A stretch of DNA of 64,000 nt from Escherichia coli (GTDB taxonomy: Bacteria; Pseudomonadota; Gammaproteobacteria; Enterobacterales; Enterobacteriaceae). The position numbers are program-made. Positions 27,001 through 30,000 of the stretch are shown here, in pieces (the first letter of the stretch is position 1; every line of letters starts with the position of its first letter). The DNA is taken from assembly GCF_050920415.1 (NCBI RefSeq), contig NZ_CP169309.1; one strand, given 5' to 3'.

Positions 27001-30000
27001 TTGATATCTCTGCTCCACGGGGTACACCTATTTACGCCGCGGGTGCAGGAAAGGTGGTGTATGTGGGCAACCAGCTGCGTGGCTACGGTAATCTCATCAT
27101 GATTAAACACAGTGAAGATTACATTACGGCTTACGCCCATAATGACACGATGCTGGTAAATAATGGGCAAAGCGTGAAGGCTGGGCAAAAAATCGCCACT
27201 ATGGGGAGCACTGATGCGGCATCTGTTCGCTTGCATTTCCAGATTCGTTACCGTGCTACGGCAATTGATCCGCTGCGTTACTTGCCGCCTCAGGGCAGCA
27301 AGCCAAAATGCTGATGGCGAATTAATCAGCAGTCAGCAGCGCGGCACTTGCTAAGAAGAGCGTAAGGTTTATAATGCCTTACGCATCTCGAAGCGGGCGT
27401 AGTTCAATGGTAGAACGAGAGCTTCCCAAGCTCTATACGAGGGTTCGATTCCCTTCGCCCGCTCCAATTTATCTTCACCTCACCAACCTGCCATTTTTGT
27501 TGTATCTGATTATCTATATTATCTTAATTCAATCGCTTCAGACTTTTCGCAATCGCCGTAATACTTCCCCATTTTTTTGTAAATAAAAGCGTTTACGCAA
27601 TGCAATCCATTTGTAACAACCCAGGTAAAATACCTTATTTTCAAGTTGTTAAATAAGTGGTTATCTACGCTTTTAACAAACGATAGATGGAATATTTTAT
27701 GAAAGGGAAATCTGCATTAACTCTTCTGCTCGCTGGTATATTTTCGTGCGGCACATGCCAGGCGACAGGGGCAGAAGTGACGAGTGAATCTGTATTTAAC
27801 ATTCTTAATTCCACGGGGGCAGCAACAGATAAAAGTTATTTATCGTTAAATCCAGATAAGTATCCTAATTATCGTCTTCTGATTCACTCAGCCAAATTAC
27901 AAAATGAAATAAAGAGCCACTATACCAAAGACGAAATTCAAGGATTGCTAACATTAACAGAAAACACACGAAAGTTAACGTTGACGGAGAAACCCTGGGG
28001 AACGTTTATTCTTGCTTCTACTTTCGAAGATGACAAAACAGCGGCAGAAACCCACTATGATGCTGTCTGGCTGAGGGATAGTTTATGGGGCTATATGGCA
28101 TTAGTATCAGATCAGGAAAATAGGGTAGCTGCAAAAAAGATTCTGCTCACCCTGTGGGATTATATGTCTACGCCCGACCAGATTAAGCGGATGCAGGACG
28201 TCATTAGCAACCCAAAACGACTGGATGGAATTCCCGGGCAAATGAATGCTGTGCATATCCGATTTGACAGCAACTCCCCCGTGATGGCAGATGTGCAGGA
28301 AGAAGGCAAGCCGCAGCTGTGGAACCATAAACAAAATGATGCGTTAGGTCTTTATCTTGATCTCCTTATACAAGCAATCAATACTGGTACTATTAACGCT
28401 GAAGATTGGCAAAAAGGTGACCGATTAAAATCGGTTGCGCTGCTGATTGCTTATCTGGATAAAGCCAATTTCTATGTTATGGAAGATTCCGGAGCGTGGG
28501 AGGAAGATGCCCGATTAAACACATCTTCCGTTGCACTGGTGACCTCTGGACTGGAACGTTTATCAAACCTACTCTCGAAGAAAGACTCTGTTTTTATCTC
28601 TGATTTACTACGCGAAGCTAAAGCCAATGAACTGGATGAACCACTTTCAACAACGAGGTTGAACCACCTCATAGATAAAGGTTATGAAAGAATAACGCTA
28701 CAGCTTGATTTAGGGGGAGAATCTCCTGGTTATCTGGAAAAAGATAAACATTACAGAGAAGCTGATGCGGCCTTACTTAATGTTATTTATCCTGCAAATC
28801 TTTCAAAGATAAATACCAGAAGAAAAGAGCAAGTTTTAAAAATAGTTAAAAAACTAGCAGGTCCGTATGGTATAAAAAGATACGAGAAGGATAATTATCA
28901 GTCGGCAAATTTTTGGTTCAATGATATTAAAACTGATACTGATGAAAATTCACATGCGAAAAGAGAAAAGAGCTTCATTCCATCAACAGAAGCAGAATGG
29001 TTTTTTGACTCATGGTATGCAAAATCAGCAGCAATTGTTTATAAAGAATCAAGAAAAGAAGAATATTTGAATGACTCAGTGCAATTTATGAATAGATCAT
29101 TGGCCCAAATAACAGGCGAGAATATGATTGGTGCAAATGGCAGGAGCGTACCTGAAATGGCACTTCCCGAAAGCTATAACTATATCCACAAGTCAGGAAC
29201 TTTGCATGAAGCGCCAAGCCCTATCATTCCGCTAAACTGGTCGAAAGCCTCAATGACTCTTATGTTGAAAGAAATGTCCAACCTTATCAATGATGAGGGA
29301 ATTAAATAGTTTTCATAATGAGGCGGTCCTGGATTAAAAGGACCGCTCAAAGAGAAATCGAAAGGGGAGGTAAAAGTGATCAATAAATTACTGTTAGCTT
29401 ACCTGATAGGTCTGGTTGTGACATCGACTTTAATATTTATCTTCTCGGAAGAAAAAGTAACATATCGGTTGTTTGCTGCAATAATTACAGGTTTAACCTG
29501 GCCGCTTAGTCTCATTCCTTCCATTATAAGTCTCATGATTCGTAAATCCGACTAACAAGAAAATTATATGATCGATTAAGAAAAATAGAATCGAACAGGA
29601 GAATAAAATATATGCGGGGAGTAACAAAACACTCGCAGTGCGTTAATGTGTAACTAACAAATATGATTTGTATTGAAAATAGTCACCAAACAAGTGTTAT
29701 AAGAAATACGGGGTATGTTTAAGTAAAACATATCAACAGTTGCAATTCTGTATATGGACAGGATGACTTACTACTGTAAGTGGCTGATAGCTATTCGCTC
29801 ATAACAAAATGATTATTTTATAAATAGGAATCATCACTTTTTAATCATGTTTTTATTGTAAGTTTATGGAGAATGAGAATATGGAATAAGGAGATGAAAC
29901 ATGATTGAAGAAGGGCTGTTACTTCCAATGAATGTTTTGCTTCAAGGACAGAAGTTAACCCTACTGGACCCTGAAATGTGGTTCTTACGGGGAAATGAAA

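Follow-up and report, generated by a model that had tools for sequence, protein, structure and literature searches.

The pkgA locus at the glyU edge of ETT2

The window, a 64,000-nucleotide stretch of Escherichia coli DNA, carries on its plus strand an open reading frame (ORF) of 540 amino acids at 27687–29309, exactly where the initial annotation had placed it. The ORF is an intact pkgA allele; the same gene is often broken elsewhere, and its K-12 remnant, a pseudogene, is annotated as ygeQ, of which pkgA is the full-length form. The ATG at 27699 (Met5 of the 540-residue ORF) is probably the true start rather than 27687, because RefSeq chooses it and because the proteins of E. albertii and other homologues open at an equivalent MK(G/R)K; residues are numbered from this ATG unless stated otherwise. 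The frame is not a chance one, given hundreds of homologues, a dN/dS of 0.08–0.10 and a confident fold prediction.

As proposed, the gene lies at the glyU edge of the island: tRNA-Gly(CCC) is followed by a last piece of conserved backbone, and pkgA then opens the low-GC ETT2 island as its first gene (Table 1). From the junction onward, the GC content falls from about 0.52 to 0.36–0.43, and pkgA itself has 40% GC and 36% GC3. Strains that lack ETT2, e.g., E2348/69, match only bases 1–308 of a query spanning 27300–29500. Downstream of pkgA, a stable hairpin was not called as an intrinsic terminator. The neighboring gene encodes a small membrane protein of the GhoT/OrtT family, for which a match to Pfam PF10753 was obtained in E. 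albertii; its pairing with a pkgA homologue recurs in another locus (L025).

Table 1. Features of the pkgA locus and its product, with positions in the window.
Feature	Position	Strand	Basis or remarks
tRNA-Gly(CCC), glyU	27393..27466	+	ETT2 chromosomal anchor; ARAGORN and RefSeq annotation of the identical locus
Conserved E. coli backbone, final piece following glyU	27467..27607		Junction with the island near 27607
pkgA (full-length ygeQ) CDS	27699..29309	+	536 aa and stop; Pfam, RefSeq, homologues, fold model
Predicted Sec signal peptide MKGKSALTLLLAGIFSCGTCQA	27699..27764	+	Hydropathy and pattern scan
HYDAVWLRDSLW, GH15 conserved region, subsite −1 Tyr/Trp/Arg/Asp	28053..28088	+	Equivalents of A. 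niger Y48/W52/R54/D55
LWNHKQNDALG, second GH15 conserved region	28317..28349	+	Equivalent of A. niger SW120GRPQRDG
SGAWEEDARLNTSS, WEE region; E268 (E272 in 540-aa numbering), predicted general acid	28488..28529	+	Conservation and alignments
GIKRYEKDNYQ, GH15 region, subsite +1/−1 Arg and Tyr	28869..28901	+	Equivalent of A. niger GR305YPED309TY311
LPESYN; E491 (E495 in 540-aa numbering), predicted general base	29163..29180	+	Loop between the last two barrel helices
Stable GC-rich hairpin, no T-run	29321..29348	+	Directly 3' of the pkgA stop; −19.7 kcal/mol, z = −3.3
GhoT/OrtT-family small membrane protein, 59 aa (ECs3735, ydcX-like)	29376..29555	+	RefSeq; pkgA neighbor
eivF (invF-like AraC regulator) and eivG (secretin SctC)	29901..32350	+	T3SS apparatus genes begin

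At the DNA level, the locus is 100% identical to that of an E. coli chromosome carrying RefSeq WP_000676910.1, which is named "glycoside hydrolase family 15 protein". The same gene is present, at 97–100% DNA identity, as ECs3736–ECs3737 in O157 Sakai, EC042_3075 in enteroaggregative strain EAEC 042 and the remnants b2863/b2862 in K-12. The position is also shared, with glyU on one side and a ghoT-like gene and eivF on the other. The present allele is intact, whereas the Sakai copy is split by a frameshift and the K-12 copy has a stop at codon 265 and an IS2-linked deletion. Its allele group is a minority, with at least 99% identity in only 41 of 3986 records. The literature credits the name pkgA, for ECs3736/3737 and EC042_3075, to Pallen (2003), and its description as glucoamylase/phosphorylase-kinase-like fits this ORF. 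The initial annotation had regarded a glycoside hydrolase at the edge of a T3SS (type III secretion system) island as unexpected. However, a GH15 protein at the glyU edge of ETT2, although correct, is the published pkgA/ygeQ and is routinely annotated as such in RefSeq.

Fold, active site and kinship with phosphorylase kinase

PkgA is a single-domain (α/α)6-barrel protein of the GH15 family. The Pfam model PF00723 (Glyco_hydro_15) matches it at 25.8 bits (gathering score 22; E 6.1e-6), i.e., just over threshold, and the alignment covers residues 98–414 on profile positions 16–309 of 427, the N-terminal two thirds. Nine of ten other family members score 27.7–55.6 bits, and the Commensalibacter member falls under the threshold at 18.8. 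An hhalign comparison with a RefSeq-annotated GH15 protein of Deinococcus gave a probability of 97.9% (E 3.5e-13), and the AF2 model (pLDDT 94) shows a GH15 fold. Among NCBIfam models, no specific one was found, only noise (TIGR01577, whose cut-off is 820, scored 14.8 bits). A match to a Nonomuraea GH15 protein was dropped for its interrupted frame.

PkgA shares only 12–15% identity with the inverting α-glucoside hydrolases of CAZy family GH15, which include glucoamylase, glucodextranase, trehalase and isomaltose glucohydrolase (K. flavida KfIG, PDB 5Z3A). Bacterial glucoamylases have a large β-sandwich N-domain, whereas PkgA has an N-terminal extension of about 95 residues; compared with GH15 enzymes, about 20 extra residues are also inserted behind YQSANFW, and the hairpin that follows the putative base is longer. 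E. coli TreA (GH37) and YgjK (GH63) are likewise Sec-exported envelope α-glucosidases with an (α/α)6-barrel, and they turned up as weaker structural matches to the PkgA model. They differ from PkgA in CAZy family and catalytic residues, and their genes belong to the core chromosome, whereas pkgA is island-borne.

Both motifs named in the initial annotation are present, AVWLRDSLW at residues 126–134 (nt 28062–28088) and the WEE-region motif SGAWEEDARLNTSS at residues 268–281 of the 540-residue ORF. Conservation was assessed over 71 bacterial sequences. In HYDAVWLRDSLW, which hhalign paired with YFYTWTRDS of A. niger glucoamylase and YAWLRDS of the Deinococcus protein, W124, R126 and D127 are invariant and Y120 is near-invariant. 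LWNHKQNDALG aligned to its counterparts in the same two enzymes, and its W208, Q212 and D214 are invariant, as are G391, R394, Y395 and D398 of GIKRYEKDNYQ, which aligned to GVHRYSHDTYY. The general acid Glu in the WEE region, within the α5–α6 loop, is a feature of GH15 enzymes (PMC12446779). In PkgA, W267, E268 and E269 of this region are invariant, and WEE aligns both to CWEE of the Deinococcus protein and to WWEE of KfIG, an E178A mutant of which has a PDB entry.

The base was assigned differently. In GH15 enzymes, the general base Glu sits in the α11–α12 loop (region S5). E491 is invariant across the 71 sequences, PLNWSKA follows LPESYN, and the predicted flanking helices span residues 454–469 and 513–530. 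A global pairwise alignment places E491 on LPEQ of the Deinococcus protein and SMSE400Q of A. niger glucoamylase (the A. niger sequence used was 100% identical to PDB 3EQA). Profile methods did not align this region significantly: searching the PDB with a profile built from the C-terminal 137 residues gave no relevant match, hhalign against A. niger glucoamylase aligned only residues 102–218, and the C-terminal pieces gave insignificant local matches. E491 is thus probably the GH15 base equivalent by motif and topology. Neither observation that would have spoken against a GH15 assignment, a missing profile match or missing catalytic residues, was made: the acid is invariant and aligned to bona fide GH15 enzymes, and the base is probably present by motif and topology, no significant alignment having been obtained.

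Altogether, PkgA retains the GH15 residues for binding glucose at the non-reducing end and for inverting hydrolysis: Tyr and Trp-x-Arg-Asp; Trp...Gln.Asp; Trp-Glu-Glu with the acid; Arg-Tyr...Asp.Tyr; and the C-terminal Glu as putative base. This would make the protein catalytically competent. Mechanism and specificity of GH15 enzymes are unreadable from sequence alone (PMC12446779). Since the active-site residues are retained, the most likely activity is exo-hydrolysis of an α-glucoside, which would release glucose in the cell envelope.

A non-catalytic role of PkgA has to be weighed here, as the solved structures nearest to it in sequence are the D1 domains of the phosphorylase kinase (PhK) α and β subunits. 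A profile of the family fits PhK α far better (E 9e-15) than any characterized hydrolase (E 1.7e-5 or worse); phmmer with the single protein gave marginal PhK matches only. PhK α D1 keeps both catalytic Glu residues, yet it is inactive on maltose, isomaltose and glycogen (PMC10978961), so that conserved residues do not guarantee activity. Accordingly, PkgA might be a carbohydrate-binding or regulatory protein whose active-site residues only bind a ligand. Against this, the catalytic and subsite −1 residues are all strictly invariant in the 71 diverse sequences, and PkgA has WEE where PhK α and β carry WER. Moreover, the PhK subunits (PDB 8JFK) are intracellular scaffolds of 1000–1200 residues with five domains (D1–D5), whereas PkgA is a stand-alone, secreted protein of 536 residues with a Sec signal peptide, a D1-like barrel only and no partner domains. 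A purely ligand-binding PkgA is accordingly considered improbable. With fair confidence, the locus as a whole is read as an intact pkgA, the first gene of ETT2, encoding a GH15 barrel enzyme that would be Sec-exported and would probably act as an exo-α-glucosidase.

Export and association with type III secretion genes

The signal peptide suggested by the initial annotation was recovered: the N-terminus MKGKSALTLLLAGIFSCGTCQA has a Sec-type n-h-c layout, with two Lys residues, an 11-residue hydrophobic core and a CQA|T site. Signal peptides were called by hydropathy and simple pattern rules and judged by eye. Cleavage may occur either by signal peptidase I after CQA or by signal peptidase II at Cys17. 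The sequence around the latter (IFSC) fits a loose PROSITE-type lipobox pattern with an atypical Phe at −2. E. albertii also has Cys17 (VLAC), and other close homologues have AxA signal peptidase I sites and no Cys. PkgA would thus reach the periplasm by export, or sit there as an anchored lipoprotein, rather than being injected by the type III route.

This bears on the proposal that PkgA is an ETT2 effector whose glucoamylase/phosphorylase-kinase-like domain disturbs host glycogen metabolism, a proposal attributed to Pallen (2003) and taken up again by the genome paper on EAEC 042 and by an ETT2 review. The gene does lie inside the island, SPI-1-type T3SS genes are in every case close to its enterobacterial homologues, and the best sequence matches in the PDB are the eukaryotic PhK subunits. 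However, a canonical cleavable Sec signal peptide is present in every T3SS-linked homologue (E. albertii, the Yersinia-type P0006/P0007, P0004 and P0034), with AxA-type sites, and such a conserved, classic signal argues against type III delivery. T3SS effectors are not known to carry cleavable Sec signal peptides, and by the same pattern rules the PkgA N-terminus does not resemble a non-cleaved type III signal free of a hydrophobic Sec peptide. There is no adjacent chaperone gene, and a literature search found no report of T3SS-dependent secretion or translocation of PkgA. Furthermore, relatives at 40–55% identity, including Gram-positives, have no T3SS genes in the sampled flanks, nor do the flanks of homologues from Commensalibacter, Bifidobacterium, Elusimicrobiota and Bdellovibrionales hold any, and four of the strains sampled, with an ETT2 that has lost eivF through eivI, i.e., secretin, ATPase and export gate, still have an intact ORF. 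Both observations point to independence from type III injection. The effector proposal is therefore given little credence, and this repeated claim is undercut by the conserved signal peptide.

The neighborhood of T3SS genes, also thought unexpected at first, is not a single case but recurs among enterobacterial homologues. In the handful of loci sampled, homologues with 49–76% identity lie 0–10 kb from SPI-1-type T3SS genes in at least five distinct arrangements: adjoining eivF-eivG (ETT2 and E. albertii), divergent from prgH, directly downstream of prgK-orgA-orgB-like genes on the same strand, adjoining invH, and 7–10 kb away (Y. enterocolitica and locus L058). Besides ETT2, five further loci have a homologue near prg/org/inv/spa genes. 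T3SS genes were found near none of the 31 more distant, non-enterobacterial loci from other phyla. Among species-representative genomes, no locus from Escherichia or Yersinia came up in a scan, the representatives presumably being without the gene. PLSDB returned no plasmid-borne homologue, its E. coli "plasmid" matches being records of 4.8–4.9 Mb, i.e., chromosomes. The neighborhoods examined held no sugar transporter or regulator hinting at a substrate, and the distant homologues had no consistent operon partner; their sole sugar-related neighbor is a GH32 gene beside the Commensalibacter copy.

Tight, recurrent linkage in Enterobacterales suggests a T3SS-related role beyond that of a plain nutritional glucosidase. 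PkgA could be exported by Sec and serve one sub-lineage of SPI-1-family systems as an accessory factor, neither effector nor nutritional enzyme, that would act on an envelope or surface glucan or a glucosylated target and aid assembly or function of the secretion system. The arrangements with prg/org, inv or spa genes, their restriction to enterobacterial loci and a signal peptide compatible with an envelope location all speak for it. Yet GH15 chemistry, which concerns α-glucosides, has no known target in T3SS assembly; a lytic transglycosylase of the usual kind is already present in the island (RefSeq annotation). The linkage could also reflect co-transfer on shared mobile islands, as IS elements and plasmid partition genes lie nearby, and the loci sampled are few. 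Salmonella SPI-1 and Shigella Mxi-Spa function and are not known to have a pkgA-like gene. Such an accessory factor is regarded as unlikely. About equally unlikely is its general form, in which PkgA-type GH15 proteins are a dedicated Sec-exported module of this sub-lineage (ETT2, a Y. enterocolitica cluster resembling Ysa, and several undescribed clusters, some of them on plasmids), neither effectors nor plain hitchhikers, whose role in the envelope or at the surface would be linked to the secretion system or the host niche.

The several arrangements suggest that the association with SPI-1-type systems is real but unexplained. If the accessory module exists, PkgA proteins, as the closest bacterial relatives of PhK α and β D1, could provide an assayable model for the ligand or activity of D1. 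Their biochemistry might illuminate the PhK glucoamylase-like domains, which have an intact-looking active site and no known activity. The kinship with PhK D1 as closest solved relatives, the conserved Sec signal, the dN/dS values, the population decay and the T3SS-linkage arrangements are the new elements of this analysis.

Decay and purifying selection in E. coli

An intact pkgA might still be a functionless passenger of a decaying island, on the way to the state of K-12 ygeQ. Independent inactivations are indeed common: pkgA is a pseudogene in K-12 and in O157:H7, where the copy is frameshifted; a stop at codon 265 is found in K-12 and strain 54 and one at codon 124 in L16-131; other copies are interrupted by IS insertions. 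Among complete E. coli genomes, 80% or more of the gene is present in only about 55%, and an apparently intact copy in about one third; no sigma-70 consensus promoter was found directly upstream of pkgA. On the other hand, the six non-O157 entries sampled, in which a single GH15 CDS is annotated, are all intact, and ETT2 in this window looks comparatively complete, eivJ and epaO both being open frames. dN/dS is about 0.08–0.10 both among intact E. coli alleles and in comparison with E. albertii, although dS is saturated; the values of two pseudogene alleles against E. albertii were ignored as artefacts of alignment through stops. A functionless passenger is thus considered improbable, and pkgA is under purifying selection.

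The pkgA gene at the glyU junction

The open reading frame that the initial annotation placed beside glyU, at the edge of the type III secretion (T3SS) island ETT2, was confirmed as uninterrupted, and no island gene lies closer to the junction than pkgA. This assignment follows from the match of ETT2-less strains, which ends at ~27607, from the drop in GC content there (~0.52 before, 0.36–0.43 up to ~57.5 kb), and from the low GC of the gene itself (40%; GC3 36%). A frame of 540 codons exists as proposed, but 27699 is the likelier start, giving 536 aa, because the MK(G/R)K found there is also where homologues start. 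The chromosome of E. coli MFDS1022581 is identical to the pkgA region of the window, and RefSeq annotates it with a 536-aa "glycoside hydrolase family 15 protein" (WP_000676910.1) starting at this ATG, from which residues are numbered here. No sigma-70 consensus promoter was found between glyU and the pkgA start codon; a hairpin without a T-run lies 3′ of the stop codon.

Features of the pkgA region and of enterobacterial loci with homologues (window coordinates unless a locus is named)
Feature	Location	Strand	Description
xdhA	window	minus	listed before actS/ygeR
actS/ygeR	window		between xdhA and tRNA-Gly(CCC) in listed order
tRNA-Gly(CCC)	27393-27466		precedes pkgA ORF
pkgA ORF	27687-29309	plus	540 codons, uninterrupted
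GhoT/OrtT-family gene	29376-29555; L005 (E. albertii) 11687-11866; L025 3144-3317		small membrane 'toxin' gene adjoining GH15 gene
eivJ, epaO	37282-39125		open frames, 298 and 315 aa
IS2-like element	42781-44054	ORFs minus	ORFs of 301 and 136 aa; GC 0.56 in 43001-44000
E. coli and E. albertii arrangement			glyU, pkgA, ghoT-like gene, eivF, eivG
L024 homologue (65% identity)	Logan DRR526056 contig, 16.7 kb		divergent from prgH-I-J-K-orgA; hilA-like and iagB-like genes beyond
L025 homologue (58%)			invH, ghoT-like gene, GH15 gene; IS66 fragments flank
L057 homologue (49%)	GCA_033038075.1, 4-kb contig, assembly labelled E. coli	all same strand	prgK, orgA, 238-aa orgB-like ORF, 88-bp gap, GH15 gene
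L058 homologue (53%)			7.4 kb from hilA-like, iagB-like, orgA, prgK-H genes
Y. enterocolitica homologue (60%)			9.8 kb from spaO-S, sycB-like, yspB/C/D-like genes; sbm operon between

K-12 derivatives carry the same DNA as ygeQ, in which a stop leaves an N-terminal fragment of 264 aa and an IS2-associated deletion follows. An ETT2 review places ECs3736/pkgA ("phosphorylase kinase and glucoamylase") and ECs3737 at the same island end (PMC3977695). The initial observation and interpretation of pkgA are correct; the literature and RefSeq, however, already contain the gene, its resemblance to GH15 and phosphorylase kinase, and its place where ETT2 borders glyU. Our additions are modest: a conserved signal peptide that speaks against an effector role, a population picture of intact and decayed alleles, and the recurrent yet variable linkage of homologues to SPI-1-type clusters.

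GH15 membership and catalytic residues

PkgA is filed as GH15. Its sole Pfam match, PF00723 (25.8 bits; gathering score 22; profile positions 16–309 of 427), is weak but not isolated, since nine of ten other family members tested exceed the threshold (27.7–55.6 bits), the Commensalibacter protein scoring 18.8. The family is small: HMMER, run exhaustively over 1.84 billion representatives, retrieved 464 proteins at E ≤ 1e-3, of which 83 reached E ≤ 1e-30. The WxRD and WEE regions first noticed are present at aa 126–134 and 268–281 of the 540-aa frame, and the invariant columns among 71 diverse members are W124, R126, D127, W208, Q212, D214, W267, E268, E269, R394, Y395, D398, E491, and W514. 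In hhalign, this alignment matched a RefSeq-annotated 359-aa Deinococcus GH15 protein, a homologue of K. flavida isomaltose glucohydrolase, with 97.9% probability, pairing WLRD, W..Q.D, WEE, and RY..D.Y with their counterparts. The first two regions also align to Y48/W52/R54/D55 and W120/Q124/D126 of A. niger glucoamylase (query sequence verified against 3EQA). Structure prediction, suggested at the outset, gave a model with pLDDT 94.2 (AlphaFold2 with the same alignment), whose fold is that of GH15.

GH15 enzymes are defined by an (α/α)6 barrel with the acid in the α5–α6 loop and the base in the α11–α12 loop (PMC12446779). The predicted acid, E268, is invariant and aligned to GH15; E491, likewise invariant, is the probable general base. 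It sits where a loop and hairpin connect the final two helices (454–469 and 513–530), before PLNWSKA, and falls on LPEQ...PLLWSQA (Deinococcus) and SMSE400Q...DLTWSYA (A. niger) in global pairwise alignments of a segment for which profile methods gave no significant alignment. PkgA would thus remove non-reducing-end α-linked glucose by single-displacement hydrolysis, and we consider it probable, with moderate confidence, that it is a GH15 enzyme of this kind, Sec-exported and either periplasmic or lipid-anchored.

The closest solved relatives by sequence are not hydrolases but the glucoamylase-like D1 domains of phosphorylase kinase (PhK) α (profile E 9e-15) and β (1.4e-6), after which isomaltose glucohydrolase ranks (1.7e-5). 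These matches reproduce the observation attributed to Pallen. PhK α D1 keeps both catalytic Glu and yet proved inactive towards maltose, isomaltose and glycogen (PMC10978961), which cautions that motifs need not imply activity. PkgA could accordingly be a PhK-like non-catalytic binder, which we regard as very unlikely; it has WEE where PhK α and β have WER, and unlike PhK it is a stand-alone 536-aa protein.

Export signal and T3SS neighbourhoods

The signal peptide noticed initially is borne out by the N-terminus, MKGKSALTLLLAGIFSCGTCQA followed by TG, in which two lysines precede a hydrophobic core of 11 residues and an AxA-type site comes after it; Cys17 is also compatible with a loosely defined lipobox. 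Comparable signals occur in all of the closest homologues, those of E. albertii (MKRKSVVDIFLTSVLAC), P0004 (...EDAFA, cleavage before T), P0006 and P0007 (...AQA, before S/T), and P0034 (...IILA, before A), and each of these proteins keeps the catalytic motifs; more distant relatives (Gram-positive and other lineages) lack one. To our knowledge, type III effectors do not carry a cleavable Sec signal. Because PkgA carries a signal of this predicted type, the effector hypothesis appears to fail a defining test. That hypothesis was "speculated" according to the ETT2 review, citing Pallen 2003, Protein Sci 12:1804 (PMC3977695), and the EAEC 042 genome paper words the same proposal for EC042_3075 (PMC2808357); we give it little credence.

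The enterobacterial-type homologues (49–76% identity) lie near SPI-1-family T3SS genes in every readable neighbourhood, in differing arrangements. This recurrence in varied arrangements would suit an accessory role for PkgA in the envelope for the T3SS, although we rate that role unlikely beside an exported hydrolase. When a single genome was scanned for each of 100,044 species, 31 loci emerged, among them those of Commensalibacter, Bdellovibrionales/Oligoflexia, and termite-gut MAGs from several phyla, and T3SS homologues flanked none of the 31; the family is therefore rare, patchy, and not intrinsically tied to T3SS. No common operon partner emerged among the non-enterobacterial neighbourhoods examined, and the Commensalibacter copy adjoins a GH32 gene. 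The family probably spread by horizontal transfer, and its enterobacterial branch travels with SPI-1-type islands, through either function or co-transfer.

The L024 locus has, on its opposite side, a SopD/pentapeptide-repeat effector gene and the partition genes sopA/sopB of F type, which match IncF plasmids at 79% identity; this side points to an undescribed plasmid. Its SPI-1-type cluster (hilA-like, iagB-like, orgA, prgK-H) is apparently undescribed, and the sequence suggests a plasmid-borne T3SS in an enterobacterium. With the second, divergent PkgA-like gene of L057, either some E. coli carry another T3SS island or the contig is foreign to the assembly. Beside the Y. enterocolitica homologue, on three independent contigs (L002 5748-9440, L003, L004), two conserved genes encode 848-aa and 326–332-aa proteins without a Pfam match; an invasin-like gene and a Tn3 fragment are close by. 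The GhoT-like gene of L025, an unrelated locus beside invH, shares 39% identity, and GhoT/GH15 gene order varies among loci. Outside Enterobacterales, the family members in the species-representative genomes are concentrated in two groups, insect-gut bacteria (Commensalibacter; termite-gut MAGs of Elusimicrobiota, Planctomycetota, Synergistaceae, Clostridiales Family XIII, Mycoplasmataceae, and Saccharibacteria) and predatory Bdellovibrionales/Oligoflexia, an ecology that might hint at the substrate, perhaps trehalose or glycogen. In P0203 (849 aa), a distant metagenomic member, the GH15-like barrel is preceded by an EAD1 (effector-associated domain 1, PF19955) at the N-terminus; NTPase-based conflict systems typically have this architecture, a hint that effector modules of bacterial immunity may include some GH15-like domains.

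Population distribution and the ETT2 copy

Some pkgA sequence is present in 3986 of 5426 complete E. coli genomes, and at least 80% of the gene in 2980. Among 60 evenly spaced records, 44 cover the whole gene, ~30 of them as a single GH15 CDS without obvious disruption; O157:H7 entries have such a single CDS annotation, yet are flagged frameshifted, and the non-O157 entries checked were intact (6/6). As a very rough estimate, an intact copy is present in one third of complete genomes or somewhat more. Independent lesions include IS insertions, the O157:H7 frameshift, and premature stops, which fall at codon 265 in K-12 and strain 54 and at codon 124 in L16-131. Such decay would suit a functionless passenger, to our minds the least probable reading, as PkgA has, judging from substitution patterns, clearly been under purifying selection: the window allele differs from six intact alleles by 26–30 synonymous and 8–11 non-synonymous changes (dN/dS 0.08–0.10), and window pkgA (27699-29309) from the syntenic E. 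albertii copy (L005 10001-11617; 76% aa identity) with dN/dS 0.08 at a saturated dS of ~1.9. Four strains with ETT2 deleted for eivF through eivI retain intact pkgA, as expected if its function does not depend on the T3SS or if decay is slow; in strain 54 that deletion accompanies the codon-265 stop.

The window allele is 97–98% identical to most E. coli copies and ≥ 99% identical in only 41 of 3986 records, which places its source strain in an ETT2 lineage held by a minority. Identities between E. coli and E. albertii island proteins are uneven (EpaP 97%, EivA 95%, secretin 85%, PkgA 76%, GhoT-like 62%, EpaO 49%), which, with the saturated dS, suggests mosaic or very old divergence of the islands. 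IS aside, the window's ETT2 looks unusually complete because eivJ and epaO are open; they are split or frameshifted in MFDS1022581 and many other strains. The IS2-like element lies between an HTH regulator gene (42305-42796) and eprH (44391-45581) and could affect expression of the prg/org-like operon. The otherwise identical MFDS1022581 lacks it; there, an IS3-family element separates the ghoT-like gene from eivF instead.
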